Positions 4,210 through 49,549 are shown, counted from the stretch's first letter. The stretch is DNA of 64,000 nt from a virus (IMGVR_UViG_3300025867_000005), one strand, 5' to 3'. Notes: generated from the letters alone by a model not told the origin. Made by a program: numbers and translations.

Positions 4210-5030
4210 CGGATACCATCACATCAATAAGATTGGGTTACGGAGGTCGTGGATTTATCAACGGGACAGAAGTCCTTATGACTTCCGGCAGCCTTGAAAA
4301 TTCCGTGTCTCCAGCCTACACGTCCGGATATCTTATCCCGATGAACGGAACAGACAGAAGCAGGGTCTTGCATGCCGATGGAACTGTTACCCATTCCGGC
4401 AGCATGGGTTTCGATTTGACCCTTAACGGCCTCAGCGTAATTGAAAGCCTGATGGCTAGAAACCAAAAATTTAACGTTGAAATGTATGACGGTAAATATG
4501 GTTTCAAAATCGGTGGTGTCGGTTTAGACGGATGTGTCGTGGATACCATTACCGTAAGTGGCGCTCCTAACGGATTCATCACGGGAAGCCTCAATTTCTC
4601 ATGTAGGAACCCCGCAACCAAACAATTTTCAAGCCTTGCAACGAACAACAGGGATATGAATATAGGAGATGTCATTCCTTATTGGTGGAGCGGTAATTCC
4701 TATGTAAGGGATTGGACGCTTACCTTTTCTCAGGCGGTGACTCCTAAATTTTCAAATTTAAATCGATACCAACTTACAACAGAAGGAATTCTTGCAAGTT
4801 CTCCGGTATACTTGTTCGTGGGTGAAATCACTGTAAGTCTTGAATTCAACACGTTTTGCCCGCTTGTCACGGATACCGTTTACATTGCTACAGATTCCTT
4901 TAAGGTCGTCGGCAGAACAACTTCTACAGGCTATTCGGTCGGCGGTCTGAACGAATTGCCTTCCTATCACTATTCTATCCAAAGTTCGGCGATAGGAAGC
5001 AACGATCATAACATACTAACCATAGGATGA
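4206..5030 (+). CDS. tail tube-like protein (paralog 3)
   Basis: LGYGGRGFING start; GSMGFDL matches GSIGFDL in paralog 1; VIPYWW motif. Confidence 0.5.
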   Translation: MTDTITSIRLGYGGRGFINGTEVLMTSGSLENSVSPAYTSGYLIPMNGTDRSRVLHADGTVTHSGSMGFDLTLNGLSVIESLMARNQKFNVEMYDGKYGFKIGGVGLDGCVVDTITVSGAPNGFITGSLNFSCRNPATKQFSSLATNNRDMNIGDVIPYWWSGNSYVRDWTLTFSQAVTPKFSNLNRYQLTTEGILASSPVYLFVGEITVSLEFNTFCPLVTDTVYIATDSFKVVGRTTSTGYSVGGLNELPSYHYSIQSSAIGSNDHNILTIG

Positions 5031-37070: not shown

Positions 37071-38834
37071 ATGAATAATGAAATATACCCCGAATCCTGC
37101 GTCGACAGGCTGGAAAATTGCAAGAAAATCCTTATCGTCAAGCCGAATAAAGAATACGACGGTTCAAAAGAACTGAAAGAAATGTGCATTGACAAAAGGG
37201 AAGTCAGTTTCACCTATCCTAAACCCGATGTCGATTTAGTTTCAGAAGCATATGCCAGTGGCGCTGATCTCGTGATACAAATCGGAAGCAGACAGACAAG
37301 GAAACTGCGGTATTATGAAGGCATGGATGACACTCTTAGGAAAGACATTTTCAACTGTGTAGAAGATAAATTCTTCAATTACCACCACCATGATGAATAC
37401 AGTTGGCGGGATGCTCTTGAAACAGTCGGGCGTTATGACAAAGAAACGAAGAAATGGAAGGGACTGGCAGGTCTTCTATTGGCGCAAAACCGCAAGTTTA
37501 TGTCAGTCACGAATCACGGCGGCATCGCCGGATGGATCAAACAGAGTCAGGTCTGTGATGAAACAGGAATCAAACCTATCTATGGGCTAGAGGCATACTA
37601 TAGCAATTACAGAGGTGAAGACCCGGAACAGAAGAAGTTAAACAGAAGTGCAAACCATCTTATTCTTCTAGCTAAAAACATCGAAGGCTATTACAACATC
37701 ATCAAGATACACAATGACGCTCAACTCAATGGATTCTACTACAGCCCGAGAACTTGTGATGAGGCTTTAAAGAAATACGGGAAAGGAATTGTAGCGACTT
37801 CAGCATGTTTTGCTGGAGAATTAGCCCAGTTGGTGATGGCAGACAAATGGGAAGAGGCGAAAGAAAGATACCGGTTCTATGAATCTTGTTTCGACAAGTT
37901 CTTTATCGAAATCCAATTGATCGAGATGAAGGAACAAAAAGAAGTAAACAGAAGGCTGATCAAGCTTGCCGGAGAAGTCGGGGCAGAACTGACAATCGGC
38001 ATTGACAGTCATTATCTCTATCCTGAACATAGTGAAACCCATGAATTGATGATGTGTATCCGTCAAGGAAGGACTATTCAAGACCTTCAGAAAGAAGATG
38101 ATGATACTTGGAAATTCACGGTAAAGAATCTGTTCTACAGGAACTATGAACAAATCCTTGACTTGTTCACAACCGGATTTATAGACAATGAAGGCGAGCA
38201 TGTGGAACCATACGAAGACGATGTTTTTACAATGGAGGTCTTTGAAAAGGCTTGTCAAAACACCAGATGGATAGCCGTCAACTGTGAAGATTATAAAATC
38301 GACAAGTCAATCAAGCTCCCGAAGCTGTATGATAACAGTGAAGAAGTTTTGTCTAAAATGGCATGGGAAGGTTTCAAAAGAAAAGGGTTCGATATCCAAC
38401 CAGATCCTAAAACCTATTCTGAACGTTTAGAATATGAATTGGATGTCATCTGTTTGGCGGGTTGGGCAGACTATTTCCTTATCACGAAAATGATAGTGGA
38501 TAAGGCTATCGAATTGAGAGGTGAATGGGGAACCGGAATAGGGCGCGGGTGTTTTGTTCCTTGGAACAGGGTAATTACAGAGAACAAAATACCAGTATTT
38601 ATATCTGATGTTAAAATCGGTGAATTTGTGTATTCGCATGACGGAACACTTAATGAAGTAATTGACAAATTTATTTATGATGTAAAAGAAGAATTAATAG
38701 AAATTGAAACTGAAGATGGAAGAAAAATCAATTGTACTTTAAACCATAGAATTCTTGTAACAAGGAACCAAAAAGAAGAATGGGTAGAAGCTCAAAACCT
38801 ACTAGAAGGAGATGATATCGTAGATCTTTTTTGA
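37071..38834 (+). CDS. dnaE: DNA polymerase III alpha, part 1: PHP domain to GRG, fused to split-intein N-fragment
   Basis: HHHDEYS, TNHG, KPIYGLEAY, HLILLAKN, SACFAGE, DSHY, ERLEYEL, DYFLI, GIGRG|CF... Confidence 0.93.
   Translation: MNNEIYPESCVDRLENCKKILIVKPNKEYDGSKELKEMCIDKREVSFTYPKPDVDLVSEAYASGADLVIQIGSRQTRKLRYYEGMDDTLRKDIFNCVEDKFFNYHHHDEYSWRDALETVGRYDKETKKWKGLAGLLLAQNRKFMSVTNHGGIAGWIKQSQVCDETGIKPIYGLEAYYSNYRGEDPEQKKLNRSANHLILLAKNIEGYYNIIKIHNDAQLNGFYYSPRTCDEALKKYGKGIVATSACFAGELAQLVMADKWEEAKERYRFYESCFDKFFIEIQLIEMKEQKEVNRRLIKLAGEVGAELTIGIDSHYLYPEHSETHELMMCIRQGRTIQDLQKEDDDTWKFTVKNLFYRNYEQILDLFTTGFIDNEGEHVEPYEDDVFTMEVFEKACQNTRWIAVNCEDYKIDKSIKLPKLYDNSEEVLSKMAWEGFKRKGFDIQPDPKTYSERLEYELDVICLAGWADYFLITKMIVDKAIELRGEWGTGIGRGCFVPWNRVITENKIPVFISDVKIGEFVYSHDGTLNEVIDKFIYDVKEELIEIETEDGRKINCTLNHRILVTRNQKEEWVEAQNLLEGDDIVDLF
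38550..38831 (+). mobile_element. split intein N-fragment (94 aa)
   Basis: Block A CFVPWNRV, block B CTLNHRI, WVEAQNL.EGD, then stop with no C-terminal HN. Confidence 0.92.
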
Positions 38835-38856
38835 TTTTGGCCTCTATGCTTAGATA

Positions 38857-40410
38857 GTGGTAGTATTTAAAAGGAAGCTTTACATGGGGAACGTTTATCA
38901 CAGAATAGAAGATGTGCCAGAATGGATTCGTCCTTTCATTGAAGAACGTACAATAAAAAGCATAGATGTCAGAACGAACAAGAATGTAGAATACAAATAT
39001 TTCGGGAAACTACCGATTCCTATAAACGAAATGCTAATTCATGAAAATGAATTGAATAAACATTTGAAGTGGGATGTGTCTGGTACGTGTTATAGTTGTG
39101 GAAATCATTTTGTTACGACTTGGAATTCACTTTTAGCAAGAAAGAAACATGCAAAAGAAGAATTCTGTGGTAAATGTCTTCGAAAGGAACAATTTACTGA
39201 AGAATGGCGGCGGCATAATTCAGAAGCTCAGAAAAAAGTGCAAGGCACACCAGAAGCTAGACGTAAAATGTCTGAAATTTTGAAAGAAGTACATCGAAAA
39301 GACCCAGAAATAAGAAAAAGGATTGGAGAATCTTTACGTCGTGGATACAAAGAACATCCAGAAAGAAGAGAAAAAGTTTCTGAAGACTTAAGAAAACGCT
39401 GGAAGGATGCCGAAGGTCAGCAGAAGTTTATGGGACGTGGATTTTATTATGGATGGGTATTTACAAGGTGTGGAAGAATCTTTTTTGCTAGTTCTTGGGA
39501 ATTGATGTTTCTTTTATGGTGTGACAATAACACGGAAGTTTGTTCTTTCAAAAGGTGTACGGATCATGTTCCTTACAAAACGACATTAGGGAAACCCTCA
39601 AACTATTATCCAGATTTCGAAATGGAAATTGGTGGAACTCAATATGTCGTGGAAATCAAAGGAAATCTTTCTGAATTTGAAACAGTTCAACGTAAAAAAG
39701 AGGCAGCAGAATCTTTTTATTTTGGCAATAAAAGATATATTATTCTTTACAAGGCTGACTTGGAAAGAATGGGAATTCTAAAGTATAACAAAAAAGTAGA
39801 ACTTTGGATTTCTGAACTTTGTGATTCTAATAAAATCGAATGTTGTGGTTTCGGCAAGTTTAAGAACACCAAAAGCTTCGAAAATTATCTCGCGAATAAA
39901 TTATCCGAAAGGAAAGAAAAGCAGCGGATAAAAGAAGAGAAAAAACACAAAATGCGTCTTGATGTTAAGTGCCCTGAGTTACTCTTACAGTGGAACTACA
40001 ACAAGAATGATAAAGGTCCAGACTTTTATCCATATTGGTCTTCGGAAAAGGCATGGTGGATTTGTTCAGACTGCGGGAATGAATGGAAACAAACAATTTC
40101 TAGCAGGACATGCACGCCCATAAGAAATTCTTGTCCAGTTTGTGCCAAAAAGAGGTTACGGAAGGAAATGTCAGAAAGATCCAAAAGGATGTCTTTAATA
40201 CGTTTCGGTCAGAAAAATCTTGAAGAAGAAAGACTAAAGTACATTAACGAAATTAAGCGTCAAATTTCTGAGACAGGAATCGTTCCGACAAGGGAAGAAT
40301 TTTTAATGAAATCAAAAATGTCGTTTGTTTATTTGTATAAAATTTTCGGGGCTTATAACTTATTAGTAGAAGAATCAGGATTTACTCCAAGAAAAAGAAA
40401 GAGAGAATAG
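38857..40410 (+). CDS. free-standing putative homing endonuclease (TnsA-like PD-(D/E)XK with zinc ribbons and basic helical repeats)
   Basis: ASSWE..F, YYPDF...VVEIKG nuclease motif; CxxC pairs; W-C..CG.EW...I..R....CP.C ribbon; sits between the intein halves (ATG 38884 is the likely start). Confidence 0.78.
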   Translation: MVVFKRKLYMGNVYHRIEDVPEWIRPFIEERTIKSIDVRTNKNVEYKYFGKLPIPINEMLIHENELNKHLKWDVSGTCYSCGNHFVTTWNSLLARKKHAKEEFCGKCLRKEQFTEEWRRHNSEAQKKVQGTPEARRKMSEILKEVHRKDPEIRKRIGESLRRGYKEHPERREKVSEDLRKRWKDAEGQQKFMGRGFYYGWVFTRCGRIFFASSWELMFLLWCDNNTEVCSFKRCTDHVPYKTTLGKPSNYYPDFEMEIGGTQYVVEIKGNLSEFETVQRKKEAAESFYFGNKRYIILYKADLERMGILKYNKKVELWISELCDSNKIECCGFGKFKNTKSFENYLANKLSERKEKQRIKEEKKHKMRLDVKCPELLLQWNYNKNDKGPDFYPYWSSEKAWWICSDCGNEWKQTISSRTCTPIRNSCPVCAKKRLRKEMSERSKRMSLIRFGQKNLEEERLKYINEIKRQISETGIVPTREEFLMKSKMSFVYLYKIFGAYNLLVEESGFTPRKRKRE

Positions 40411-40650
40411 ATGTCTAAAATTAAATCGTTAAAAAAGATGGAATATAATGGGAAAGTATATGATTTGTGTGTTAGGAATACGCACACATACAATATAGAA
40501 GGATTAGCGGTACATAATTCAGCCGGTGGGTCATTAGTTTCGTTTTGTACGGGTATTACAGATATTGACCCGATCAAGTACGATCTTCTGTTCGAACGTT
40601 TTCTTGATTTTAGCCGAAGTGAAATCAAGGTCAATGGATTTGAAGCCTAA
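40411..40650 (+). CDS. dnaE: split intein C-fragment (36 aa) fused to DnaE part 2 (43 aa)
   Basis: MSKIKS...VYDLCV..TH.Y...LAVHN|[30 protein letters not shown]. Confidence 0.93.
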
Positions 40651-40653
40651 TAC

Positions 40654-40682
40654 TTGACAGTCGTGTTCTTAAATGCTAAAGT
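40654..40682 (+). promoter_or_regulatory. sigma70-type promoter
   Basis: TTGACA (40654-40659), 17 nt spacer, TGn-TAAAGT (40677-40682), upstream of the methylase genes. Confidence 0.7.
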
Positions 40683-40709
40683 GTTTGTCAACTTGAAAGG
40701 TGTAAAAGA

Positions 40710-41576
40710 ATGAATGTTTTGTCCTTGTGCGATGGAATTAGTTGCGGTAGGCTTGCTCTGCAACGGGCAGGTCTAAATGTCGAAAGATATTTTAGTTCTG
40801 AAATTGACAACAATGCGATTGCAATTTCCGAAAAGAACTGGACTGATCAAATCAGGTTGGGTGATCTTAATCTGATTACTCATGAACTAATTGATTCTAT
40901 GCCACAAATAAACCTTGTGATGTTCGGAAGTCCATGTCAGAGTTTTTCACGTCTTGGGAAACAAGAAGGCTTTGATGGGAAATCTGGGCTATTTCATATC
41001 TGTCAAAGAATACTTTCCTATATCCAATCGAAGAATACAGACGTGAAGTTTCTCGTGGAAAACGTAGATATGAAAGAAGAATGGAAGGACATAATCTCTT
41101 CCAAGCTTGGTGTTAGCCCTATTAAAATAGACAGTCGTCTACTTTCTCCTGCTAAACGCAAACGCATTTACTGGACGAATATCAAAACCGATATTCCACA
41201 AGAACTAGGTTTGACATTCGATGACATTAATGATGGTTCTCAAAACTGGATTGACGATAATATTATTCGTAAAATTGAGGCATGGAAAGCACAACAAAAA
41301 CCCCTTAAAAATGCTGTTGTTATCGGCGCTAAACAAAAGCTTCCTTGTTTAACCGCAAGAGGATATAATCAGTACCATTCTGGTATGATTCTTATTACTG
41401 ATGGAAACGGAAGGTATCGGTATTTAACGAACCTTGAAGGTGAACGGGCAATGACACTTCCGGACGGATACACAGATGCTTTTACCGGAAAGCAATCAGA
41501 CAAATTTCGTAGTCATGCTATCGGAAACGGCTGGACTGTAGACGTGATCGCCCATATCCTAAAAGGAATCAAGTAA
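40710..41576 (+). CDS. DNA (cytosine-5)-methyltransferase
   Basis: VLSLCDG, GSPCQ, ENV, KRKRIYW, GNGW. Confidence 0.92.
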   Translation: MNVLSLCDGISCGRLALQRAGLNVERYFSSEIDNNAIAISEKNWTDQIRLGDLNLITHELIDSMPQINLVMFGSPCQSFSRLGKQEGFDGKSGLFHICQRILSYIQSKNTDVKFLVENVDMKEEWKDIISSKLGVSPIKIDSRLLSPAKRKRIYWTNIKTDIPQELGLTFDDINDGSQNWIDDNIIRKIEAWKAQQKPLKNAVVIGAKQKLPCLTARGYNQYHSGMILITDGNGRYRYLTNLEGERAMTLPDGYTDAFTGKQSDKFRSHAIGNGWTVDVIAHILKGIK

Positions 41577-42481
41577 TGAATTCATTTGAAGGGATTAACG
41601 TCCTAAGCTTATTTGACGGAATGAGTTGCGGACAGTTGGCACTTAAACGTATCGGAATCATTCCTGACAACTATTTTGCAAGTGAAATCAAGACTGATGG
41701 AATTTCGGTCACTATGTCTAACTTCCCGAATACTAAACAAGTAGGAGATGTCACCAAGCTTGACGGTAAGAGTCTTGGTAAGATTGACCTTCTTATCGGT
41801 GGGAGCCCTTGTCAGGATCTGTCAATTGCGACGCATGACAGAACGGGTCTGTCAGGAATTAAGTCGAAGCTTTTCTACGAATATGTCAGGCTTCTTAAAG
41901 AGACGAATCCGACCTATTTCCTTCTTGAAAACGTCGTGATGAAGCCACAGTGGGTTAAAACTATCAGCCTTTACCTGAAGACAGTGGAACCCCACAGGAT
42001 CAATTCTGATTTGGTAAGCGCTCAAAATAGGCCAAGACTTTATTGGACGAATCTTATCGCCACTGAAATTCAAGACAAGAGGATTGCTCTCAAAGACATC
42101 CTTACTGACTTTCCTAAACGTTGCTACCGTTGGCTAAGCAAGGTACAATTACAGAAGCTAGAGAACAAAGGATACCGTTATCAAAGCATGTACCGGGTTC
42201 TAAGCCCTGAAGAAAAGGCTGGATGTGTAAGCGCAAGCGGGTTCTGTAATAGCCAAGACAACAAAGTCAGGATCGGAGATGGAATCAGATATCTTACCAA
42301 TGAAGAAAACGAAAGGCTTCAGACTCTGCCATATGGCTATACTAGCGGCATTCCAGAATCAAAAAGGAAACACTGTATCGGCAATGGATGGACGGTGGAT
42401 GTCATCGCCGAATTCTTTAAGAAAATCGGGATGGAAGTCTATAAACAAGAAGAAATGTTCAGACTTGAAGAACTGAACTAA
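41576..42481 (+). CDS. DNA (cytosine-5)-methyltransferase (second, tandem)
   Basis: VLSLFDG, GGSPCQ, ENV, QNRPRLYW, ERLQT, GNGW. Confidence 0.93.
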   Translation: MNSFEGINVLSLFDGMSCGQLALKRIGIIPDNYFASEIKTDGISVTMSNFPNTKQVGDVTKLDGKSLGKIDLLIGGSPCQDLSIATHDRTGLSGIKSKLFYEYVRLLKETNPTYFLLENVVMKPQWVKTISLYLKTVEPHRINSDLVSAQNRPRLYWTNLIATEIQDKRIALKDILTDFPKRCYRWLSKVQLQKLENKGYRYQSMYRVLSPEEKAGCVSASGFCNSQDNKVRIGDGIRYLTNEENERLQTLPYGYTSGIPESKRKHCIGNGWTVDVIAEFFKKIGMEVYKQEEMFRLEELN

Positions 42482-42493
42482 ACGAGGAATAAA

Positions 42494-43537
42494 ATGATCA
42501 AAACTACACCTCTATATTCTTTTTCAGATATCGTGATGTTACCAGCGGATGTGTCTCGTGTTTTAAGCAGAAGCCAGTGTAACGTATATCTGCCGAACGG
42601 GAAGTTGCCATTGATTACGGCCCCCATGTTCAGCGTAATCAACGAAAACAATGCGTCGCTGTTTGTCAGCAATGCCATTCATGCTTGTTTGCCAAGGACA
42701 AGCAGGGATAAGTGGCTTGGAAAAACAGAAGAATGGATGATTCAAAGCTACGGGATGGATGAGTTTTTGTCCGTCATTCAGGAATGGAAGGATGACAAGG
42801 AAAAGCATTATGCCCTTATTGACATCGCCAACGGCCACATGCGAAAACTTATGGATGCCGTTAGGGAAGCAAAAACCAAGCTAGGCGACAGGTTATGGCT
42901 AATGGTTGGAAATGTTGCTCTACCTGAAACTTACGTGATTCTCTCGCAAGACGGAGCGGATGCCGTACGTTTGGGTATCGGGACTGGGAACGCATGCATC
43001 ACAAGCTGCAATTCTAGTATTCACTATCCATTAGTTTCTCTAATCGAAAGTTGTTACCGTGAAAAGATCCGTTTGGGATTGAATTCAGAAATCATCGCTG
43101 ATGGAGGCTTTAGCAATTTCGACCAGATTATCAAGGCAATCGGATTGGGAGCCGATAAGGTAATGTGTGGAAATCTTTTCAACAGGGCACTACAAAGCGC
43201 AGGGAAAACTACCGTTAAGGGAACCGATTGCGTAGTTGACCAGTATTCAGAGGAAATCAAACAGGCTTTCAAGAACGGTCTGGAACTCGAAAAAGAGTAT
43301 TACGGAATGTCCACGAAGAGGGCTCAGCGGGAAATGGGACATGAAACCCTTAAGACGAGTGAAGGCATTGTCAAGATTAATCGCGTAGAATACACATTAG
43401 GACAGTGGACGGAAAACTTTAAGCACTACCTTTCGACAGCTATGTCTTATACAGGAAAAACAAATTTGAATGATTTCCGTGGTAGGGTTGATTTTAATGT
43501 CGTTACACCACAGGCATTTCAGGCGTTTATAAAGTAA
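42494..43537 (+). CDS. guaC: GMP reductase / IMPDH-family protein
   Basis: TAPM, IDIANGH, GNV, GIGTGNACIT, IADGG, YYGMS, SEG; no CBS domains. Confidence 0.8.
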   Translation: MIKTTPLYSFSDIVMLPADVSRVLSRSQCNVYLPNGKLPLITAPMFSVINENNASLFVSNAIHACLPRTSRDKWLGKTEEWMIQSYGMDEFLSVIQEWKDDKEKHYALIDIANGHMRKLMDAVREAKTKLGDRLWLMVGNVALPETYVILSQDGADAVRLGIGTGNACITSCNSSIHYPLVSLIESCYREKIRLGLNSEIIADGGFSNFDQIIKAIGLGADKVMCGNLFNRALQSAGKTTVKGTDCVVDQYSEEIKQAFKNGLELEKEYYGMSTKRAQREMGHETLKTSEGIVKINRVEYTLGQWTENFKHYLSTAMSYTGKTNLNDFRGRVDFNVVTPQAFQAFIK

Positions 43538-43547
43538 GGAAAAATCT

Positions 43548-43874
43548 ATGCAGGTGATAATTCGTGAACAGAAGAACATCTTTGAATACATGGAAAAGTA
43601 TTTGAAAGAAGCGAAACTTTTAGTCGGACGGAAGAGAATTGATTTTGTCTTTCTGGAACTGAGTCTTCCTAATACCTGCACTTTAGTTATTGATGGAGAA
43701 GAATTCGAAACCACTAGAAGATTCTATTACAGAGAGGGAAAGTGTTTTTATGACATCTTTTGTTGGTTGGCGGATGAACTCCATTCGGAAATAAGAGCTT
43801 TCCCGAATGATTTTACAATTGAAGAAATGAATGCGTTTATCCTGTTACACGGGATGAAGGAGAAAGATTTATGA
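43548..43874 (+). CDS. hypothetical protein
   Basis: RBS AAGGA; operon-like packing. Confidence 0.6.
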   Translation: MQVIIREQKNIFEYMEKYLKEAKLLVGRKRIDFVFLELSLPNTCTLVIDGEEFETTRRFYYREGKCFYDIFCWLADELHSEIRAFPNDFTIEEMNAFILLHGMKEKDL

Positions 43875-44080
43875 CATGCAGCGAGTGTAATTCCGAAATC
43901 CCCAATGAGAAAGAGACGCATATGGAAAACGGAGATGTCCTGTGTCCAAAATGTCTTCTATCAGAAAGCGAAGACGAAGTTAAAAAGATTACCTCTTCAA
44001 TTTGTTCCGGACAGTGCCGTGAAGAAGAAGAATTCCGTGAAATAGAATTTATCATTCAAAGGAACGTAAGAGTTTTATGA
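43871..44080 (+). CDS. small zinc-finger protein
   Basis: CSEC...CPKC; strong RBS. Confidence 0.55.
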   Translation: MTCSECNSEIPNEKETHMENGDVLCPKCLLSESEDEVKKITSSICSGQCREEEEFREIEFIIQRNVRVL

Positions 44081-44322
44081 CTGACACAATGACACCGAAA
44101 CAGTTTGCGTTGAATAGGCTTTATCGGCTGTTGTCTTATTCGGGGATTAAAAAAGAAGTTTTCTTGAAAGAAAACAGGATAGAGTCTATAGAACAGCAAA
44201 CAGGTCTTGACTTCGCGGAAACAATGTGTTTGGTATCAGACAGGCTAGATATCGACGTAGATTATTTCTTCGACAGATTCAGACTTGAAAAAGGAGAAGC
44301 GAAATGGACATTCAAAGCGTAA
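44077..44322 (+). CDS. hypothetical protein, possibly HTH
   Basis: Ends L.I.VDYFF, as in Cro/CI-type HTH domains. Confidence 0.45.
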   Translation: MTDTMTPKQFALNRLYRLLSYSGIKKEVFLKENRIESIEQQTGLDFAETMCLVSDRLDIDVDYFFDRFRLEKGEAKWTFKA

Positions 44323-44600
44323 GCTGGGAAAGATTCAACGAAATCGTTAAATCAGCAGATCAAATTCTTGTTACCTCAAACTTGTTTGCATGTGGTGAAG
44401 AAGAATACCGTTTTTGGACTTTCTTAGACAATTTCAGCGATAATGTTGAACTTCAATTCATGGCGACGGACAATGATGAATTTTTCATCATCGGAAAACA
44501 GGAAGTTTCTTATGACGGGGATTACTATTCCTGTAAATGTGATGATTCAGTATTCAAGATGAAGTTCAACAAAGTTACGACAACCCCGATTCTCCCTTAA
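44304..44600 (+). CDS. hypothetical protein
   Basis: AAGGAG RBS; packed. Confidence 0.55.
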   Translation: MDIQSVSWERFNEIVKSADQILVTSNLFACGEEEYRFWTFLDNFSDNVELQFMATDNDEFFIIGKQEVSYDGDYYSCKCDDSVFKMKFNKVTTTPILP

Positions 44601-44604
44601 AAAA

Positions 44605-44820
44605 ATGGAAAACCAAATAACTATAGCGGACTTGATCAAACATCTTCAGACCTTCCCTCAAGATGTACCCATATTCTGGTATCATGATGAAAGCGGAACT
44701 TACGGTCAAAGAATAGAAATGCCAGGCAAATTTGAAGATGTCAAGTGGAATGAAAAATGGAATTGCTGGCGGGATGCTTTTGAAGAGAGTTCCAGCACGA
44801 AAAAGGTTTTTGTAATATGA
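44605..44820 (+). CDS. hypothetical phage protein
   Basis: T..DLI..LQ.FPQD.P pattern common in small phage proteins. Confidence 0.6.
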   Translation: MENQITIADLIKHLQTFPQDVPIFWYHDESGTYGQRIEMPGKFEDVKWNEKWNCWRDAFEESSSTKKVFVI

Positions 44821-45368
44821 GACCCAAGTGGACGGCGCAGCAAGTTGAAATCGCCGTTATCAATCATTTTAATCCAAGAAGAAACCTTATAGTCTCAAAT
44901 GTCAGTTGGGGCTTGTTCGCTTATCATGAGGCCGATCTAGTTATCCTTTCTCCATATAACTGTGGAACAGAAGTTGAAATCAAGGTAACTGCGGCTGATA
45001 TCAAAGCAGACCTTAAGAAAAGACACGGGCATAAGGAAGAAATAATCAGAGATGTCTGGTTCGCCGTACCAGAAGAATTGGCCGATGATCCTAACATCCC
45101 TTCTTATGCAGGCATCATAGCCGTCAAGAAGTGGAAAACTAGAAGTGGTAAACAAAGGTATTCTTGTGTCAGGAAAAGGTTGCCGGTAAAGAACAAAGAT
45201 TTTCGCAAGTTTACAGAAGCAGAAAGGCAGAAGCTTCTCAGACTCGGTTGTCTAAGGATTGTCGGACTGAAAGAAAAGCTGGATGACAAGTCTAACAAAA
45301 TTGATGAACTTAAACAGCGTATCCGGGAGCTTGAACTAAAGAAGGAGACAAAATATTTTGAAGACTGA
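44817..45368 (+). CDS. PD-(D/E)XK (MmcB-like) nuclease-fold protein
   Basis: HEADLV...EVEIKV...D..AD..K, WFAVP. Confidence 0.7.
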   Translation: MRPKWTAQQVEIAVINHFNPRRNLIVSNVSWGLFAYHEADLVILSPYNCGTEVEIKVTAADIKADLKKRHGHKEEIIRDVWFAVPEELADDPNIPSYAGIIAVKKWKTRSGKQRYSCVRKRLPVKNKDFRKFTEAERQKLLRLGCLRIVGLKEKLDDKSNKIDELKQRIRELELKKETKYFED

Positions 45369-45684
45369 AAGAGACAGGATGTTCCAGGTTGATTCTAAAA
45401 TCAGACAGAACAAACTGGATGATAAGACACGTAGGGAAAACAGAAACCGTAAAGTAAGTTATCTATTGACAGACAAGGTTGAATGTAGGATTGAAGTCTT
45501 AGACGGAATTTGTGAAGAAGGAAAAGAAGAAACAAGAATCTGGGGAAGTCAAATTGTTTTGGAAACGGATGAAGGAACGATTACAACAGTTGTCCGTGGA
45601 AAGACAAAGAATAGCGCAGAAGTTCTGACCCGTACTTTCTTAGACAAAATGGGCGTAAGGTACAAAATCACGAGAGGAAGTTAG
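45358..45684 (+). CDS. hypothetical protein
   Basis: AAGGAG RBS before a TTG start. Confidence 0.5.
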   Translation: MKTERDRMFQVDSKIRQNKLDDKTRRENRNRKVSYLLTDKVECRIEVLDGICEEGKEETRIWGSQIVLETDEGTITTVVRGKTKNSAEVLTRTFLDKMGVRYKITRGS

Positions 45685-45687
45685 AAT

Positions 45688-46341
45688 ATGTCAAACGGTT
45701 TATTCATTTCATTCGAAGGGCCGGAAGGCGGCGGTAAATCCACCATGCTGAAGAGAACAGCAGAATGGCTAATTGGACAGGGTAAGGAAGTTCTTTGCAC
45801 TAGAGAACCTGGAGGGACGAAACTCGGGGATTATATCCGCGACATGCTGAAACATGACAGCTGCGGTGAAAGTCCTACAAATGCTACTGAAGTTCTTCTT
45901 TTCCTTGCGAGTAGGGCGCAGCATGTAGACACCGTGATTGAACCTGCTTTGCTGACAGGGAAGATTGTCCTGTGTGACAGATTTGAAGATAGCACATTCG
46001 CCTATCAGAGTTACGCGAGAGGGTATGATTTGGGGGTGTTGCAAAATCTTAATTCTTTCGCCACGTCTGGGTTCTCACCAAGCATCGTTCTGATCTTTGA
46101 TATCGGTTTGGAAGATTCTCTAAAAAGGATGAAAAAGCGTCAAGCCATTACAGAAACGACAGCAGACAGAATCGAAATGGCCGGAAATGATTTTCACCAG
46201 AAGGTCAGAAACGGTTTTCTAAGCCTTCAGAAGGAAGATCCAGAACATAAATTCTTGATTGATGCAAGCCTTGAAGAAGAATTGGTTTGGGAACAAGTCA
46301 AAAAAGTCCTTACGGATAAAATACAACACAGGAGTCACTGA
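45688..46341 (+). CDS. tmk: thymidylate kinase
   Basis: FISFEGPEGGGKST, TREPGGT, LLF.A.RAQH, CDRF..ST.AYQ. Confidence 0.95.
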   Translation: MSNGLFISFEGPEGGGKSTMLKRTAEWLIGQGKEVLCTREPGGTKLGDYIRDMLKHDSCGESPTNATEVLLFLASRAQHVDTVIEPALLTGKIVLCDRFEDSTFAYQSYARGYDLGVLQNLNSFATSGFSPSIVLIFDIGLEDSLKRMKKRQAITETTADRIEMAGNDFHQKVRNGFLSLQKEDPEHKFLIDASLEEELVWEQVKKVLTDKIQHRSH

Positions 46342-46342
46342 A

Positions 46343-46525
46343 ATGAGTGAAGATAATGAAGGTTTCTTAAAGATGTCCCATAGTTTGACTATCACTGTGG
46401 ATGGAAGAGTTGTCTTACATTCATCTATCGGAAGCAATCCTGATACCGAAAGCCAGCTTTGCGAAGTTCTTGAAGAACTGATTGCTTTCATGAAAGCGCC
46501 AAAAACGGAAATAACTAACCTTTAA
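46343..46525 (+). CDS. hypothetical protein
   Basis: AGGAG RBS before ATG 46343. Confidence 0.5.
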   Translation: MSEDNEGFLKMSHSLTITVDGRVVLHSSIGSNPDTESQLCEVLEELIAFMKAPKTEITNL

Positions 46526-46571
46526 CGCGCCTTCGTCGATTCGTTATTATTTTTAGAAAAGGAGAACAAGA

Positions 46572-46751
46572 ATGAAAACTAGAAACATGAAAGTGCTGGA
46601 ATTAACTGATGAAGATGTCGTGCCTAAACGGAATAACATTCAGGTTTCAGAATCAGGGAAACAGGAATCAGAAGCGGAAGTTATTCTTTTCAAAGGATAC
46701 GTACTGAAGAACGTATATGGACCTAGAAGCGTTTACCCGGCGATGGCATAA
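46572..46751 (+). CDS. small hypothetical protein (59 aa, not in ORF track)
   Basis: AAGGAG RBS; MKTRNMKVLEL...YPAMA-stop. Confidence 0.5.
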   Translation: MKTRNMKVLELTDEDVVPKRNNIQVSESGKQESEAEVILFKGYVLKNVYGPRSVYPAMA

Positions 46752-46773
46752 TCTATTAAACAAGGGAACAGAC

Positions 46774-46986
46774 ATGGAAATTACAACAAAAAACGGATGG
46801 AAGCTTGAAATCAATGATAGCCAAGAAGCTAAAGACGAAGTTTTCCAGATCATTATTGATTGGATTAAAAAGTATGATGCTTTCAGTTGGGAAACGATTG
46901 GGCAAGACGATGACTGTCAAATATATGCCATAGACTGTCTCGGGCCTATTGTAGACAAGATTGTCAAAATGAAAGAATCAGACTAG
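46774..46986 (+). CDS. hypothetical protein
   Basis: AAGGGA RBS, preceded by TCTATT motif. Confidence 0.5.
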   Translation: MEITTKNGWKLEINDSQEAKDEVFQIIIDWIKKYDAFSWETIGQDDDCQIYAIDCLGPIVDKIVKMKESD

Positions 46987-47002
46987 TCTTGGATAATTGA
47001 AT

Positions 47003-47045
47003 GAAAAGTGGGATCGGTGTAAAAGCTGGTCCCACTTTCTATTTT
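47003..47045 (+). terminator. hairpin/terminator upstream of dnaE part 3
   Basis: AAAGTGGGATCGG-loop-CTGGTCCCACTTT followed by a T-rich tract. Confidence 0.6.
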
Positions 47046-47065
47046 CAGAGAGACAAGGAAACATT

Positions 47066-49549
47066 ATGAAATACCCAAACATCGAGACGATTAAGCAGAT
47101 TTGCGATCCGTTGGTTTCAGGACTAGGTAATGACTATCAGCAAAGATACAATGATGAACTTAAGGATTTGAAAAAGTGGGTTTTGTTTGTTCAGACAGAC
47201 AAGGCTAAAGAAATCCTTGAAATGAGAAACAATCCACCTAGCGAAACCAACAAGTCTGGAAGTCTGATCCTTTGGCTTTTGGGGATAAGCAGTGTTGACC
47301 CTATAAAAAACGGGATTCCTACCGCAATGAAGAAATTCGGCAAGGCGGACCCTCCTGATATCGACATGGATTTGATGCCGGATGTCAGAAATGAAGTCAA
47401 AGCTTTCCTTGTGGAAAAATTCGGGCAGTCTCGCGTCTGTAGCGTCGGCACCGTAGGCACCTACAAGACGAAGAACGTTATCCTGGACGTTGCTAGGGCG
47501 CTTGGATTGGACGTTAAAGAAGCGATGGAAGTTACGAAGAATCTTGATGCGGAAATCGGTGGAGAAGAAGATGGTGACGAAGACACAAAGCTTGACAAAG
47601 CAGGGTTTGATGAAATCTGCAAGGCACAGTCGGAACTTGCCAATTACTTTGAAAAATATCCTGAAGTGAGGGAACATGCTGAAATATTGAGGAATCAGGC
47701 TAAGAATTTCGGGACACATGCCGGAGGCGTAATCATTTCAAATCTTGATTTGACGGAGAAAATCCCTGTATATCGGGACAAAGAAGGTCGTGTCGTCAGC
47801 TCTTGGTCGGAAAGCGGAGAAAAACAGGAATTGTCCAGCCAGGGCTATATAAAATTTGACGTTTTAGGCCTTTCTAACTTGCCGATTATTAATGATACTA
47901 TACGTTTGATTAAGGAAAACCGTGGGATTGATATCCACAGGAAAGACATTCCGATTGATGATCATGAATCTATCAAGATGGGAACCCGTGGGGAGCTTCT
48001 AGGAATCTTCCAATTTGAGAACCCGTATACTAAAAAGATCGCCGACAAGGTAGGATGTGATAGTTTGGGAGATATTGCCGCTATTACGTCATTGATTCGC
48101 CCTGGACCTAAAGATGTCGGTCTAGATGTCGAATATGCTGAGCGTAAGAGCGGGAAAGAATATGATAAGAACGTCATCCTTGATAAAGTGATGGGAAACA
48201 CATACGGGGTTTTAACTTATCAGGAACAGCTACAATTGCTTGCAATCCATATGGCGGGAATGACTCCATTGGAAGCCAACAGACTCAGGAAGGGCGCGTC
48301 TAAGAAGAAAAAAGACATCATGGATGAACTAAAGCCGAAGTTCATTCAGGGATCTATCGAAAAGTGTGTCAAAACCGGAATCATGACGGAAGAACAGGTC
48401 AACAAAATTTGGGACATGATCGAATCAACAGCGTCTTATAGCTTCAACAAAAGTCACGCTTACGCATATTCCGCCATTACTACAACAGAAATATGGTTAA
48501 GATATCATTACTTCTATGAGTATATGACAGCTTTGCTTCAGAACAGTGATCCGAAGAAGGAAAAATTCGGGACCACGATCTTTGACAAGTATGTTAAATT
48601 CGCGATAGACAAGGGGATGGTTGTCCACAAGCCAAGCATTAATGAATCCCGTGTTGAATTCCGTCTTGAAGGTAATGACCTTTGGTATGCCCTTGGACAT
48701 GTAAAGAATGTCAGCAACAGCGCCCGCGCGATTGTCAAACACCAACCTTATGCAAGTCTGGAGGACTTCTATAATCGCTGTACGGTTGAAGTCGGGACGG
48801 AAGGTAAAACAAGAAGACCGAATACCAGAGTCGTAGAAAGTCTAATCTACGCAGGAGCCTTTGATTGTTTCGGAGACAGAGAAACGGTTTTCAAGAATTT
48901 CTATGAATTAACTGACAGGGTGGAGAAATGGAAACTACCGAAAGCTCATCCTTGTCTAAAAGCAGGTATCGGACATGTTGAGATTCTACCTGAAGGTGTG
49001 GAGATCAGTGCCTCTAATCTTTCGAAAAATCTTTGCAAGATCCGTAAGACGAAATCCGTTGTTGTCGATCAAGAGATAGAAAGCCGTAGGGTGTTGAATT
49101 ATGACAGCACACTGAAATACATTGATCTTCCGGCATTGGATCAAAAGACCTTAGATGAGATGGAGAAGGAAATGCTAAGCGTCAGGCTTTCGGACAACAT
49201 CTATTCGAAATACAGGAAACAGACAAGGGAAGTCAAGGGGCTTTGCAGCTATACGACAGCAAAGCTGGAAACAGAGAAAACCAGAATTAAAGTTCTGGGT
49301 GAAATCATGGGGATCAAAGAAGTCAATTTCAAATCAGGAAGTCAGGGGTTGAGGGTCTATATCAGTGACGGAAACAAAGAAATGAATTTCCTTGTGTTTT
49401 CAAGTGCCGTCATGCTTTTCAAAGACCATTTCCAAGAAGGAGATATTGCCGTCATTCCGTTGCGTAATTTCGGGCAGGATTCTGAAGACAAAACATTCAG
49501 ATTCTATGATGATAGAGAAACGGGATTCGTTTTGAAAAGGGAAGACTGA
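47066..49549 (+). CDS. dnaE: DNA polymerase III alpha, part 3: catalytic palm/thumb/fingers/OB, no PHP
   Basis: PDIDMD, GTHAGG, IKFDVLGL, GIFQFE, LIRPGP, YQEQ, YSFNKSHA, P.INES, OB-like C-terminus. Confidence 0.93.
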   Translation: MKYPNIETIKQICDPLVSGLGNDYQQRYNDELKDLKKWVLFVQTDKAKEILEMRNNPPSETNKSGSLILWLLGISSVDPIKNGIPTAMKKFGKADPPDIDMDLMPDVRNEVKAFLVEKFGQSRVCSVGTVGTYKTKNVILDVARALGLDVKEAMEVTKNLDAEIGGEEDGDEDTKLDKAGFDEICKAQSELANYFEKYPEVREHAEILRNQAKNFGTHAGGVIISNLDLTEKIPVYRDKEGRVVSSWSESGEKQELSSQGYIKFDVLGLSNLPIINDTIRLIKENRGIDIHRKDIPIDDHESIKMGTRGELLGIFQFENPYTKKIADKVGCDSLGDIAAITSLIRPGPKDVGLDVEYAERKSGKEYDKNVILDKVMGNTYGVLTYQEQLQLLAIHMAGMTPLEANRLRKGASKKKKDIMDELKPKFIQGSIEKCVKTGIMTEEQVNKIWDMIESTASYSFNKSHAYAYSAITTTEIWLRYHYFYEYMTALLQNSDPKKEKFGTTIFDKYVKFAIDKGMVVHKPSINESRVEFRLEGNDLWYALGHVKNVSNSARAIVKHQPYASLEDFYNRCTVEVGTEGKTRRPNTRVVESLIYAGAFDCFGDRETVFKNFYELTDRVEKWKLPKAHPCLKAGIGHVEILPEGVEISASNLSKNLCKIRKTKSVVVDQEIESRRVLNYDSTLKYIDLPALDQKTLDEMEKEMLSVRLSDNIYSKYRKQTREVKGLCSYTTAKLETEKTRIKVLGEIMGIKEVNFKSGSQGLRVYISDGNKEMNFLVFSSAVMLFKDHFQEGDIAVIPLRNFGQDSEDKTFRFYDDRETGFVLKRED

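Follow-up and report, generated by a model that had tools for sequence, protein, structure and literature searches.

Introduction

In phage Aeh1, the gene nrdA is split by the free-standing endonuclease gene mobE, and tails that stem from the insertion bring the enzyme back together (Crona et al. 2011, PMC3045599). Fractured genes, in which a split intein and a free-standing endonuclease gene lie between the gene halves, have also been described, with three DnaE loci listed among them (Dassa et al. 2009, PMC2677866). In cyanobacteria, a natural split intein joins the separately encoded pieces of DnaE (Wu et al. 1998; Caspi et al. 2003, cited in PMC2677866). Additionally, DNA polymerase III alpha of group 2.2 jumbo phages takes a split, 'minimal' form (Iyer et al. 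2021, PMC7824862), whose Pol-beta-like palm is predicted to be divided between an N-terminal NTP-binding protein and a C-terminal Mg/DNA-template-binding protein encoded by separate genes.

The window analysed here, a stretch of 64,000 nucleotides, belongs to a 304-kb phage genome (estimated complete) in which a DnaE-type DNA polymerase is spread over three genes. The locus shares separate genes and a natural split intein with cyanobacterial DnaE, but the insertion site is another one, and splicing, which restores a complete single-chain DnaE in cyanobacteria, would here yield only a PHP subunit. It resembles the group 2.2 polymerase in the predicted division of the palm; unlike that version, which is described as minimal, without PHP or other DnaE domains, and accompanied by a family B polymerase, it possesses PHP, fingers, HhH and OB domains and is the only polymerase found. 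The account of the group 2.2 polymerase does not appear to mention a duplicated segment, which is a feature of the present locus. It is likely that this dnaE was cut twice by two selfish elements, and that intein repair together with non-covalent docking builds one catalytic site.

Organization of the three-gene polymerase

All pieces lie within 37071-49549 on the plus strand, and all of their reading frames are open. Part 1 (37071-38834, a 587-aa ORF) comprises a 493-aa extein and the intein half IntN; part 2 (40411-40650, 79 aa) comprises IntC and a middle extein of 43 aa; and part 3 (47066-49549, 827 aa, with its ATG at 47066) is the catalytic subunit bearing the PDID motif, in agreement with the anatomy originally predicted. 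A 6.4-kb spacer of cargo genes (40651..47065) separates parts 2 and 3. Together, the pieces follow the domain order of a C-family DnaE (Pol III alpha), running from PHP through a Pol-beta-like palm and fingers to HhH, with Pfam matches to PF02811, PF07733 (on three pieces), PF17657 and PF14579, while positions 4-1044 of the NCBIfam DnaE models are covered across them. Independent profiles reveal an overlap of part 2 and part 3: in PF07733, parts 1, 2 and 3 match positions 2-65, 65-100 and 68-260, and in NCBIfam PRK05673 they match positions 4-372, 366-398 and from 368 onward.

The DnaE active-site set is complete, with each motif present once but on different polypeptides, GIGRG/S (the slash marking the intein junction) and ERF..R being carried by parts 1 and 2, and D98, D100 and D265 by part 3. 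No further DnaE piece and no other PDID-containing continuation was found elsewhere in the 304-kb genome, and a genome search identified no family A or B polymerase and no DnaQ-type exonuclease. The three-gene DnaE is the phage's only recognisable DNA polymerase. Assignment to the minimal module of group 2.2 phages was rejected, given the PHP, HhH and OB domains and the lack of a family B polymerase in the genome.

The split intein

The part 1 extein (37071..38549; Pfam PHP, E 2e-27) consists of an N-terminal domain of ~95 aa, the PHP domain and the palm's first half, which closes with the P-beta1 strand and GIGRG. All nine metal-ligand positions of the PHP domain are present, in columns conserved in the PHP-subunit alignment. 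The extein is followed by IntN (38550..38834, 94 aa plus stop; Hint and intein matches), which starts with CFVPW and contains Cys1 and a TxxH block (TLNH). IntC (40411..40518, 36 aa), matching positions 121-155 of the Intein_splicing profile, ends in VHN, so that the split intein motifs read CFVPW..TLNH in part 1 and ..AVHN/S in part 2. In the middle extein (40519..40650, 43 aa plus stop), S+1 is the Ser of the GS motif, the Arg of the ERF helix corresponds to E. coli R390, and SR corresponds to E. coli R396.

The intein exactly interrupts the host sequence, which reads G-R-G-S-A-A-G-S-L-V without interruption in intein-less homologues. Three alleles occur at the GRG/S site, namely intein-less (P0124), contiguous intein (P0126) and split intein. 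The contiguous mini-intein of P0126, which has 5 residues at the split point, is 44% identical to IntN in its N-part, and the stretch of P0126 matching the whole of part 2, where the intein is contiguous, is 73% identical to it. In 11 relatives, a split intein at GRG/S rejoins an otherwise normal DnaE. These sequence relationships suggest that parts 1 and 2 trans-splice to a 536-aa PHP subunit, a predicted length that matches the intein-less PHP subunits of relatives (520-547 aa).

Between the intein halves lies a free-standing ORF (38857..40410, plus strand, 517 aa), the stop of which abuts the IntC ATG. It matches the Pfam DUF4379 zinc ribbon (E 2.7e-13) and an HNH-associated repeat (E 3.6e-4), while showing no NCBIfam match, no informative PDB match and no recognised nuclease core. 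It is presumed to be a homing endonuclease.

The second, intein-less cut

The cut just before PDID carries no intein motifs at either terminus: part 2 stops after its tail, and part 3 has its own ATG, preceded by the RBS AAGGAAA. The last 10 residues of part 2 (40618-40647, plus strand) form this conserved tail, a pseudo P-beta2 strand added to the first reading of the locus, which resembles the PDID strand in degenerate form.

A survey of related phages, as the original prediction had proposed, found that uncultured large phages share this cut, in at least 26 catalytic subunits and 38 PHP subunits. The 38 PHP subunits end in ..ERFLD.SR plus the tail, which is conserved with its invariant Phe, and the 26 catalytic subunits carry a degenerate N-terminus. 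Residues G491, R492, G493, S494, R520, R526 and F534 do not vary among the 38 PHP subunits, while GRGS or ERF occurs in 0/26 catalytic subunits, among which PDID.D is invariant; the duplicated segment has thus lost its motifs reciprocally between the two kinds of subunit. Eight PHP/catalytic pairs appear to share a contig, judging from equal lengths of their longest contigs, and two of them were seen side by side (P0149+P0062 and P0141+P0014). Dozens of relatives, 40-86% identical, retain the design. The tail and the 95-aa domain at the N-terminus of the catalytic subunit are limited to split alleles and absent from full-length relatives.

Comparison of L007 with L008 reveals a clean 1372-bp insertion replacing 30 bp, with flanks 77-80% identical. 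In a tree of the catalytic core, the split forms are scattered among full-length forms, requiring 14 or more changes; a constraint that unites them in one clade was rejected (delta lnL 1217, p-AU 1.4e-4) for a split-form group chosen after the first tree was seen. The degenerate N-terminal copies, in contrast, fall into one group (26/26, SH-aLRT 100). With the split forms scattered on the core tree and their N-terminal copies in one group, the PDID cut is not lineage-specific and is read as a laterally spreading gene-splitting cassette, which presumably spread by homing.

In the window, the spacer encodes two C5 cytosine methyltransferases (40710-42481), a gene resembling IMPDH/GMP reductase (42494-43537) and a thymidylate kinase (45688-46341), identified with Pfam and PHROGs, together with an ORF (44817-45368) of unknown PHROG function that sits where L012 has its MmcB-like gene. 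Small ORFs are also present. A signal scan placed a promoter-like site after part 2 (40654-40682) and a strong terminator-like hairpin upstream of part 3 (47005-47038). In relatives, the spacer ranges from 350 bp to >10 kb. No endonuclease gene was recognised with Pfam and PHROGs among the scanned ORFs of the window's spacer, and none lies in the gaps of L011 and L007; the gaps of L010 and L009 each contain an endonuclease-like gene, matching a PHROG HNH endonuclease (E 2e-28) and a PHROG endonuclease (E 7.5e-25), respectively.

The catalytic subunit and its degenerate N-terminal copy

Part 3 begins with ~95 aa (47066..47350, plus strand) of degenerate palm segment, which keeps the Y..R...E helix and GSLILWLLGISSVDPIK, lacks GRGS and ERF, and has TNKS where GRGS stood. 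The profile of the 26 catalytic N-termini was aligned by hhalign to that of the 38 PHP-subunit C-termini, with PDID excluded (probability 95.8%, E 8e-9, 85 columns), and to the same region of full-length relatives (98.7%, E 4.7e-16). The duplicated palm segment is statistically real at the level of these profiles, and the second copy recognised at the outset is thereby confirmed.

The rest of part 3 (47351..49549, plus strand; fingers E 7e-40, HHH_6) opens with the P-beta2 motif PDIDMD (47354-47371), which contains D98 and D100, followed by the third Asp, D265, in KFD, the thumb, fingers with FNKSHA, HhH and a C-terminal OB fold. VIA-align matched part 3 to Taq and E. coli Pol III alpha (2hpi, 3e0d, 2hnh) with Z 21-25, the match beginning at model residue ~92, equivalent to E. 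coli 398.

A predicted active site shared by two proteins

In E. coli, dGTP has R362, G363 and S364 of P-beta1, and also R390, within 4 A; no activity is left in R362A, and the catalytic efficiency of R390A is 27-fold lower (bioRxiv 10.64898/2026.06.29.735100). The corresponding nucleotide-binding set here consists of the GS loop, the Arg of GRG, the Arg of ERF and the following Arg.

The complex prediction was run on the intein-less cognate pair P0149+P0062, 41-46% identical to the window's proteins, in place of the window's three chains. It gave an ipSAE of 0.81 in three runs, a mark reached by 58/80 solved complexes and 2/110 mismatched pairs, while the best control gave 0.00. At least 90% of contacts were common to the runs, and partner pLDDT was at least 82. 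The GS strand of the PHP subunit was placed against the DxD strand of its partner: the best contact pairs (487:107, 488:106 and 489:105) form an antiparallel ladder, the extension of which puts G491-G493 opposite D103-D101. The PHP subunit modelled alone lacks the P-beta1 strand, and its tail is disordered. Both the tail and the degenerate N-terminal copy lie in the modelled interface; from their presence in the interface list, they probably act as an extra clamp, and the N-terminal copy is read as a docking domain. The complex model may only rebuild the full-length DnaE fold from its halves after solved structures, a likeness rather than proof of binding or of a common active site.

Conservation and the model together support a two-subunit enzyme, with nucleotide-binding residues on the spliced PHP subunit and metal-binding aspartates on the catalytic subunit. 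The heterodimer originally proposed is upheld in this division of residues and in the reciprocal loss; its proposed origin by partial duplication and complementary decay within this lineage is not, as the module is scattered over many unrelated dnaE lineages.

Alternative explanations

Part 3 could instead be a self-sufficient PHP-less polymerase, its N-terminal copy completing the palm in cis with a substitute N-K/R-S-x-S, and the spliced PHP protein serving only as an accessory proofreader or scaffold. The copy does fold in the single-chain model (pLDDT 82-93), and the catalytic subunits keep N-K/R-S-x-S where GRGS..GS stood, with N62 nearly invariant and S66 invariant at the place of the GS and helix cap, so that this motif could be an alternative phosphate-binding loop in cis; PHP-less DnaE relatives that retain GRGS also exist (P0283, P0306, P0331), and the PHP metal ligands are intact. 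In the catalytic subunits, however, R362 and R390, which are highly important in E. coli, have no counterpart; GRGS and both arginines, invariant in all PHP subunits, would be left with no catalytic role. Moreover, the complex model uses the trans copy, and most DnaE superpositions of the catalytic subunit start only at ~92, leaving the cis copy outside the canonical position. This stand-alone reading, which had been offered from the beginning as the alternative, is improbable, and less likely than the two-subunit enzyme.

The suggestion that assembly gates replication found no support; a simpler reading is that two selfish insertions lie one on top of the other and are each repaired in their own way. 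As a regulatory device, the three-piece layout would time polymerase activity by the rate of trans-splicing and assembly; the position of part 3, 6.4 kb downstream behind the terminator-like hairpin, and the promoter-like site after part 2 mean that the pieces could be expressed separately. Yet close relatives have no intein, a contiguous intein or an unsplit gene, and the tree shows many switches of the split state, as expected of neutral selfish insertions rather than of a conserved control circuit, which makes such a device very unlikely. It is harder still to credit that the pieces are a decaying, non-functional dnaE in a phage using the host polymerase, or an assembly artefact, for which the fragmentation itself, and nothing beyond, speaks. 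The frames are open with every catalytic motif in place, dozens of relatives keep the design with invariant active-site residues, and the genome, estimated complete, offers no other polymerase. Independent assemblies also agree on the arrangement. Misassembly was ruled out by an independently assembled relative (ENA and JGI contigs, 81-86% protein identity), in which the genes, starting with the free-standing ORF and the 79-aa IntC gene, follow one another as they do in the window; this relative has a 587-aa PHP-IntN protein on an equally long contig.

Proposed origin of the divided polymerase

From the anatomy, duplicate homology, reciprocal conservation and scattered cassette distribution observed here, the preferred reading of a dnaE cut twice can be set out as two events. 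Different selfish elements would have made the cuts, which lie 33 codons apart and fall on the palm's two best-conserved motifs. One would have brought the split intein and the free-standing ORF to GRG/S, where trans-splicing would join the 493-aa and 43-aa exteins. The other would be the entry of a cassette between the Arg after ERF and PDID, a permanent split that would add the 10-aa pseudo-strand tail upstream and the 95-aa degenerate first half of a palm downstream. Judging from the model, the two proteins would dock non-covalently, the PHP subunit giving P-beta1 with Arg-Gly-Ser and two arginines holding the incoming dNTP, and the catalytic subunit giving P-beta2 with two metal-binding Asp, the third Asp, the thumb and the fingers; we infer a shared active site on this basis.

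A more tentative extension, perhaps somewhat short of an even chance, is that a self-contained 'split-and-dock' mobile cassette homes into the PDID site of intact phage dnaE, carrying its own antidote, the tail and a pseudo-palm from an old duplication of the target, which clamps the halves; here, the intein's covalent repair and the cassette's non-covalent repair would both be needed for one catalytic centre. If true, the 43-aa middle piece carries the dNTP-binding arginines of a catalytic centre built by two repairs.

Comparison with known systems

The first cut resembles the fractured genes of Dassa et al., having IntN, a free-standing ORF and IntC in order, an ORF stop abutting the IntC start and insertion at a conserved motif. 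Unlike in those genes, the C-extein runs into a stop after just 43 aa, since the second, intein-less split comes next, and in place of the endonuclease described there, the middle ORF shows only the DUF4379 zinc ribbon and the HNH-associated repeat.

The second cut finds its closest counterpart in Aeh1 nrdA/mobE. In both, a selfish insertion that involves neither intron nor intein interrupts the active-site region of an essential replication-related enzyme, extra peptides occur on split alleles only, at the new C- and N-termini, and the active site extends across two polypeptides, as predicted in the present case. In contrast to mobE, the window's gap holds cargo genes with no recognisable endonuclease, and the system is known here from genes and models. 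Here DnaE is the target, what is added downstream is not a short charged tail but a 95-aa degenerate duplicate of DnaE's own palm segment, and the design, found in one phage for Aeh1 nrdA, is here present in dozens of divergent phages.

Gene anatomy of the three-piece polymerase

The window corresponds to bases 84571-148570 of a virus record of 304,025 bp, complete according to CheckV. It has a G+C content of about 41% and carries nearly all of its genes on the + strand. Its dnaE is distributed over three genes, all on that strand. Part 1 (37071-38834) encodes 587 aa, with an N-terminal domain of about 95 aa, a PHP domain (Pfam E 2e-27) and the leading portion of the DnaE palm (PF07733 positions 2-65); its extein ends in GIGRG and is followed in frame by the 94-aa IntN, which begins CFVPW and contains a TLNH block. 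Between the intein halves lies a 517-aa ORF (38857-40410, + strand) with a DUF4379 zinc ribbon and an HNH-associated repeat, whose stop directly abuts the ATG of part 2 (40411-40650). Part 2 consists of a 36-aa IntC ending in VHN, 43 residues (sequence not shown) and a stop, covering PF07733 positions 65-100. After 6.4 kb of cargo, comprising two C5 methyltransferases, an IMPDH/GMP-reductase-like gene, small ORFs and a thymidylate kinase, part 3 (47066-49549) starts at ATG 47066 behind the ribosome-binding site AAGGAAA and encodes 827 aa with PF07733 positions 68-260, fingers, HhH and a C-terminal OB fold. PDIDMD occupies its residues 97-102, and the third Asp is D265 in KFD. On the NCBIfam E. 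coli-type DnaE model, parts 1, 2 and 3 cover positions 4-372, 366-398 and 368-1044, and because parts 2 and 3 overlap, about 30 profile positions occur twice.

A search of the genome revealed no DnaE piece beyond these three, and no family A polymerase, family B polymerase or DnaQ-type exonuclease was matched in the genome. Misassembly is excluded by independent contigs. The three-piece anatomy described in the original prediction is real, and as an observation it is well supported.

Several further features accompany these genes. Residues 1-95 of part 1 (37071-37355) form the conserved N-terminal domain preceding the PHP motif HHHDE, and this domain is predicted in the homologue P0149 with pLDDT of about 95. 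A sigma-70-like promoter (40654-40682; TTGACA-17-TAAAGT, with TG) directly follows the part 2 stop, and a terminator-like hairpin (47005-47038; 14-bp stem, T-rich tail) is located directly 5' of the part 3 ribosome-binding site and ATG. Judging from these signals, part 3 may be transcribed or regulated separately from parts 1 and 2.

Intein-less two-gene DnaE in related phages

Relatives were gathered with part 3 and the part 1 extein as queries; tblastn of the phage collection with part 3 returned only relatives at no more than 31% identity, and a pattern scan of viral_contigs gave no matches. The homologues form one DnaE clade; the phages that carry them are uncultured and for the most part very large, with contigs of up to 477 kb. 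Three architectures occur in the clade: a full-length form of 1190-1320 aa, an intein-split form and an intein-less two-gene form. In the last of these, the upstream PHP subunit (38 sequences of 431-633 aa, most of 517-549 aa) ends in a 25-residue segment (not shown) and a conserved tail of about 10 aa, typically hydrophobic-x-hydrophobic-x-Thr-Phe-acidic-hydrophobic, as in GNIVACTFDL of P0141. The downstream catalytic subunit (26 sequences) carries a domain of about 95 aa before PPDID, in which C13, Y24, E31, N62, S66, L71 and P79 are conserved. Eight PHP/catalytic pairs appear to share a contig, as judged by the matching size of their longest contigs, and for P0149+P0062 and P0141+P0014 both genes stand side by side in fetched loci. 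The break before PDID is found in at least 38 PHP and 26 catalytic subunits of related phages, and the predicted 536-aa spliced product of parts 1 and 2 is the exact counterpart of these intein-less PHP subunits. Literature searches yielded no description of a full-size two-gene DnaE.

More distant PHP-less DnaE proteins (P0251, P0256, P0268, P0296, P0312, P0354, P0359, P0283, P0306, P0331 and P0257) are of two kinds, some having neither GRGS nor ERF, as in part 3, and others starting at the same palm segment and keeping both; cuts have therefore hit this part of DnaE, or its vicinity, repeatedly and in different ways.

Probable distribution of the active site over two chains

The two subunits show reciprocal conservation of active-site residues. 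G491, R492, G493, S494, R520 (of ERF), R526 and F534 are invariant in all 38 PHP subunits, where mean column identity is 46%, and GRGS or ERF is present in none of the 26 catalytic subunits. In the E. coli enzyme, the incoming dGTP has R362, G363 and S364 (palm strand P-beta1) and R390 within 4 A, D401 and D403 are located on P-beta2, and R362A abolishes activity while R390A lowers efficiency 27-fold (bioRxiv 10.64898/2026.06.29.735100).

A complex was modelled from the cognate intein-less pair P0149 (residues 90-536) and P0062 (residues 1-550), standing in for the window chains, with the alignment of each chain restricted to split-type sequences. The pair reached an ipSAE of 0.81 in three of three runs against 0.00 for the best control; among solved complexes 58 of 80 attain this mark, and among mismatched pairs 2 of 110. 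Both chains are halves of a protein with a solved full-length structure, so that the pass may merely echo that structure and speaks for likeness, not binding. At least 90% of contacts were common to the runs, with partner pLDDT of at least 82. The surest modelled contacts (487:107, 488:106 and 489:105) form an antiparallel ladder, which, when extended, would place G491-G493 opposite D103-D101 in the canonical P-beta1/P-beta2 geometry; the modelled interface also includes the tail (519-536) and the degenerate N-terminal copy of the catalytic subunit (31-78). A model of the PHP subunit by itself leaves the tail disordered and lacks the P-beta1 strand, a predicted fold that is consistent with the need for a partner and is not decisive.

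Alternatively, the catalytic subunit could supply the missing element in cis, with the conserved N-K/R-S-x-S of its degenerate copy replacing the GS loop. When this subunit is modelled alone, its N-terminal copy folds (pLDDT 82-93) and Foldseek with the single-chain model retrieves DnaE matches. When it is superposed on Taq and E. coli Pol III alpha with VIA-align, most of the alignments begin only at about model residue 92 (E. coli 398), and since the reported ranges give first and last residues only, the exact place of the N-terminal copy in that model is uncertain. Taking conservation and the complex model together, an active site shared between the two chains is the best explanation and a probable one. 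The original prediction of a site divided between PHP and catalytic subunits is borne out to this extent; its suggestion that the arrangement gates replication found no support.

The degenerate copy and the tail

The N-terminal domain of the catalytic subunits is, by profile comparison, a degenerate duplicate of the palm segment. With PDID left out, hhalign matched the 26 N-termini to the last 125 aa of the 38 PHP subunits over 85 columns (probability 95.8%, E 8e-9), and to the same region of full-length enzymes at 98.7% (E 4.7e-16). Searched against 1.84 billion representatives, the degenerate-domain profile hit 18 clusters at E<=1e-10, all at protein N-termini, and at weaker E-values the internal palm segment (positions ~270-500) of ordinary DnaEs of ~1000-1200 aa. 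The tail, in turn, resembles a decayed version of the element that follows, P-beta2: in an alignment made by hand, the hhalign alignment having stopped short of the tail, I-V-A-C-T-F-D-L of P0141 falls over D-I-D-T-D-F-D-P when set on the invariant Phe, and both catalytic Asp are replaced by hydrophobic residues. Together, these likenesses indicate a duplicated unit that begins at the Y..R...E helix, continues over P-beta1/GS and the ERF helix and extends to P-beta2. GS and the arginines survive in its upstream copy, from which the aspartates are gone; the downstream copy shows the reverse.

The split intein at GRG/S

The Ser of the GS motif stands at the +1 nucleophile position of the window intein. 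In intein-less relatives (P0124 and 37 others), G-R-G-S-A-A-G-S-L-V is uninterrupted. P0126 carries a contiguous mini-intein at exactly the same GRG/S site: its N-part shares 44% identity with the window IntN, its C-part plus the adjoining extein shares 73% with part 2, and only 5 residues lie between the two parts where the window intein is split. In 11 relatives, the catalytic chain starts with an IntC at this site and continues as a normal DnaE (..HN/SAAGSLV..LLFERF..PPDID). In locus L012, the intein-less PHP gene P0124 is followed by the cargo order of the window (IMPDH-like, small ORFs, MmcB-like, thymidylate kinase), so the intein is a later arrival in this sub-lineage. Situated 33 codons upstream of the second, intein-less cut, it yields a three-piece enzyme. 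No nuclease type was named for the ORF at 38857-40410 by PHROG, Pfam, NCBIfam or PDB searches.

Other insertions occur in this phage group. Large DUF4379 zinc-ribbon ORFs recur, inside the split intein (38857-40410) and after an SMC-like gene in L005 (14754-15950). P0004, which is 86% identical to part 3 (L005:10001-12913), has an extra intein in the fingers at FNK/..SNSHA that the window lacks, which brings the intein or insertion sites of this dnaE family to three. The IMPDH/GMP-reductase-like cargo gene, whole in the window (42494-43537), is fractured in L005 (4052-6564) and L012 (3083-5623) into an N part with a Hint-type match (Pfam scan on L005 only), a middle ORF of 334-339 aa with faint DUF559 or restriction-enzyme-like matches, and a C part, a layout like that of the fractured IMPDH genes in Dassa et al. 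2009.

Origin of the split

The original prediction attributed the split to partial duplication and complementary decay; that this took place within the lineage of the window is not supported by the phylogeny. A tree built from the 395 aa that follow PPDID intersperses the split forms with the full-length and intein-split ones, and in IQ-TREE with 52 rows the starred branches force at least 14 changes. Holding the split forms together, as a group defined after the first tree was seen, is 1217 log-likelihood units worse (p-AU 1.4e-4). The 26 degenerate N-terminal domains all fall into one group (SH-aLRT 100) apart from the canonical segments, among which those of full-length enzymes and PHP subunits intermix; cores 83% identical may carry N-terminal domains merely 31% identical. 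Independent duplication in each lineage is rejected, because the degenerate copies all group together and share derived motifs.

P0032 (split) and P0043 (full-length) make the clearest case. They are 85% identical overall, nearly identical for ~500 residues after PDIDTDF and unrelated upstream, and the PHP gene beside P0032 is 82% identical to P0043 residues 1-508, similarity ending at ERFLDESR. At the DNA level, 1372 bp in L007 stand in place of 30 bp in L008, between flanks 77-80% identical. The gap is 350 bp long with no ORF in L011, holds one 367-aa ORF in L010 (7896-8999; PHROG 'HNH endonuclease', E 2e-28) and seven ORFs in L009, of which the first is endonuclease-like (4550-4996; E 7.5e-25), and measures 6.4 kb in the window and >10 kb in L004; no endonuclease was found in the window's own gap by PHROG, Pfam, NCBIfam or PDB searches. 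Sequence comparison and analogy suggest that the split originated as a spreading cassette, for which we infer a homing step.

Implications and comparison with known systems

If the shared site is true, a replicative C-family polymerase would be able to work with its nucleotide-binding loop and metal-binding strand on separate polypeptides. Nature would then have provided a complementation system in which the parts played by the GS loop and the R390/R396 equivalents could be dissected, along with two docking modules ready for use. A widespread gene-splitting cassette with a target-derived docking domain is suggested by the data, and in the window two kinds of selfish element are stacked 33 codons apart. 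Present annotation calls these genes 'PHP domain protein' or 'hypothetical', and it may make the polymerase seem truncated.

The split pattern matches homing-endonuclease-driven 'genes in pieces', best studied in Aeh1, where nrdA is split by mobE and the enzyme cannot do without the tails that the insertion brought along (Crona et al. 2011, PMC3045599); the cassette would extend this single well-studied case to the main replicase of many large phages. For group 2.2 jumbo phages, Iyer et al. 2021 predicted a 'minimal' Pol III alpha divided into an NTP-binding and a Mg/template-binding protein (PMC7824862), cut at the same functional boundary as the window DnaE. The minimal enzyme has no PHP domain and occurs alongside a family B polymerase, neither of which holds for the window DnaE. 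The order IntN, 517-aa ORF, IntC follows the 'fractured gene' layout, for which Dassa et al. 2009 listed three DnaE loci (PMC2677866). The arrangement in the window is a fractured gene and genes in pieces combined.
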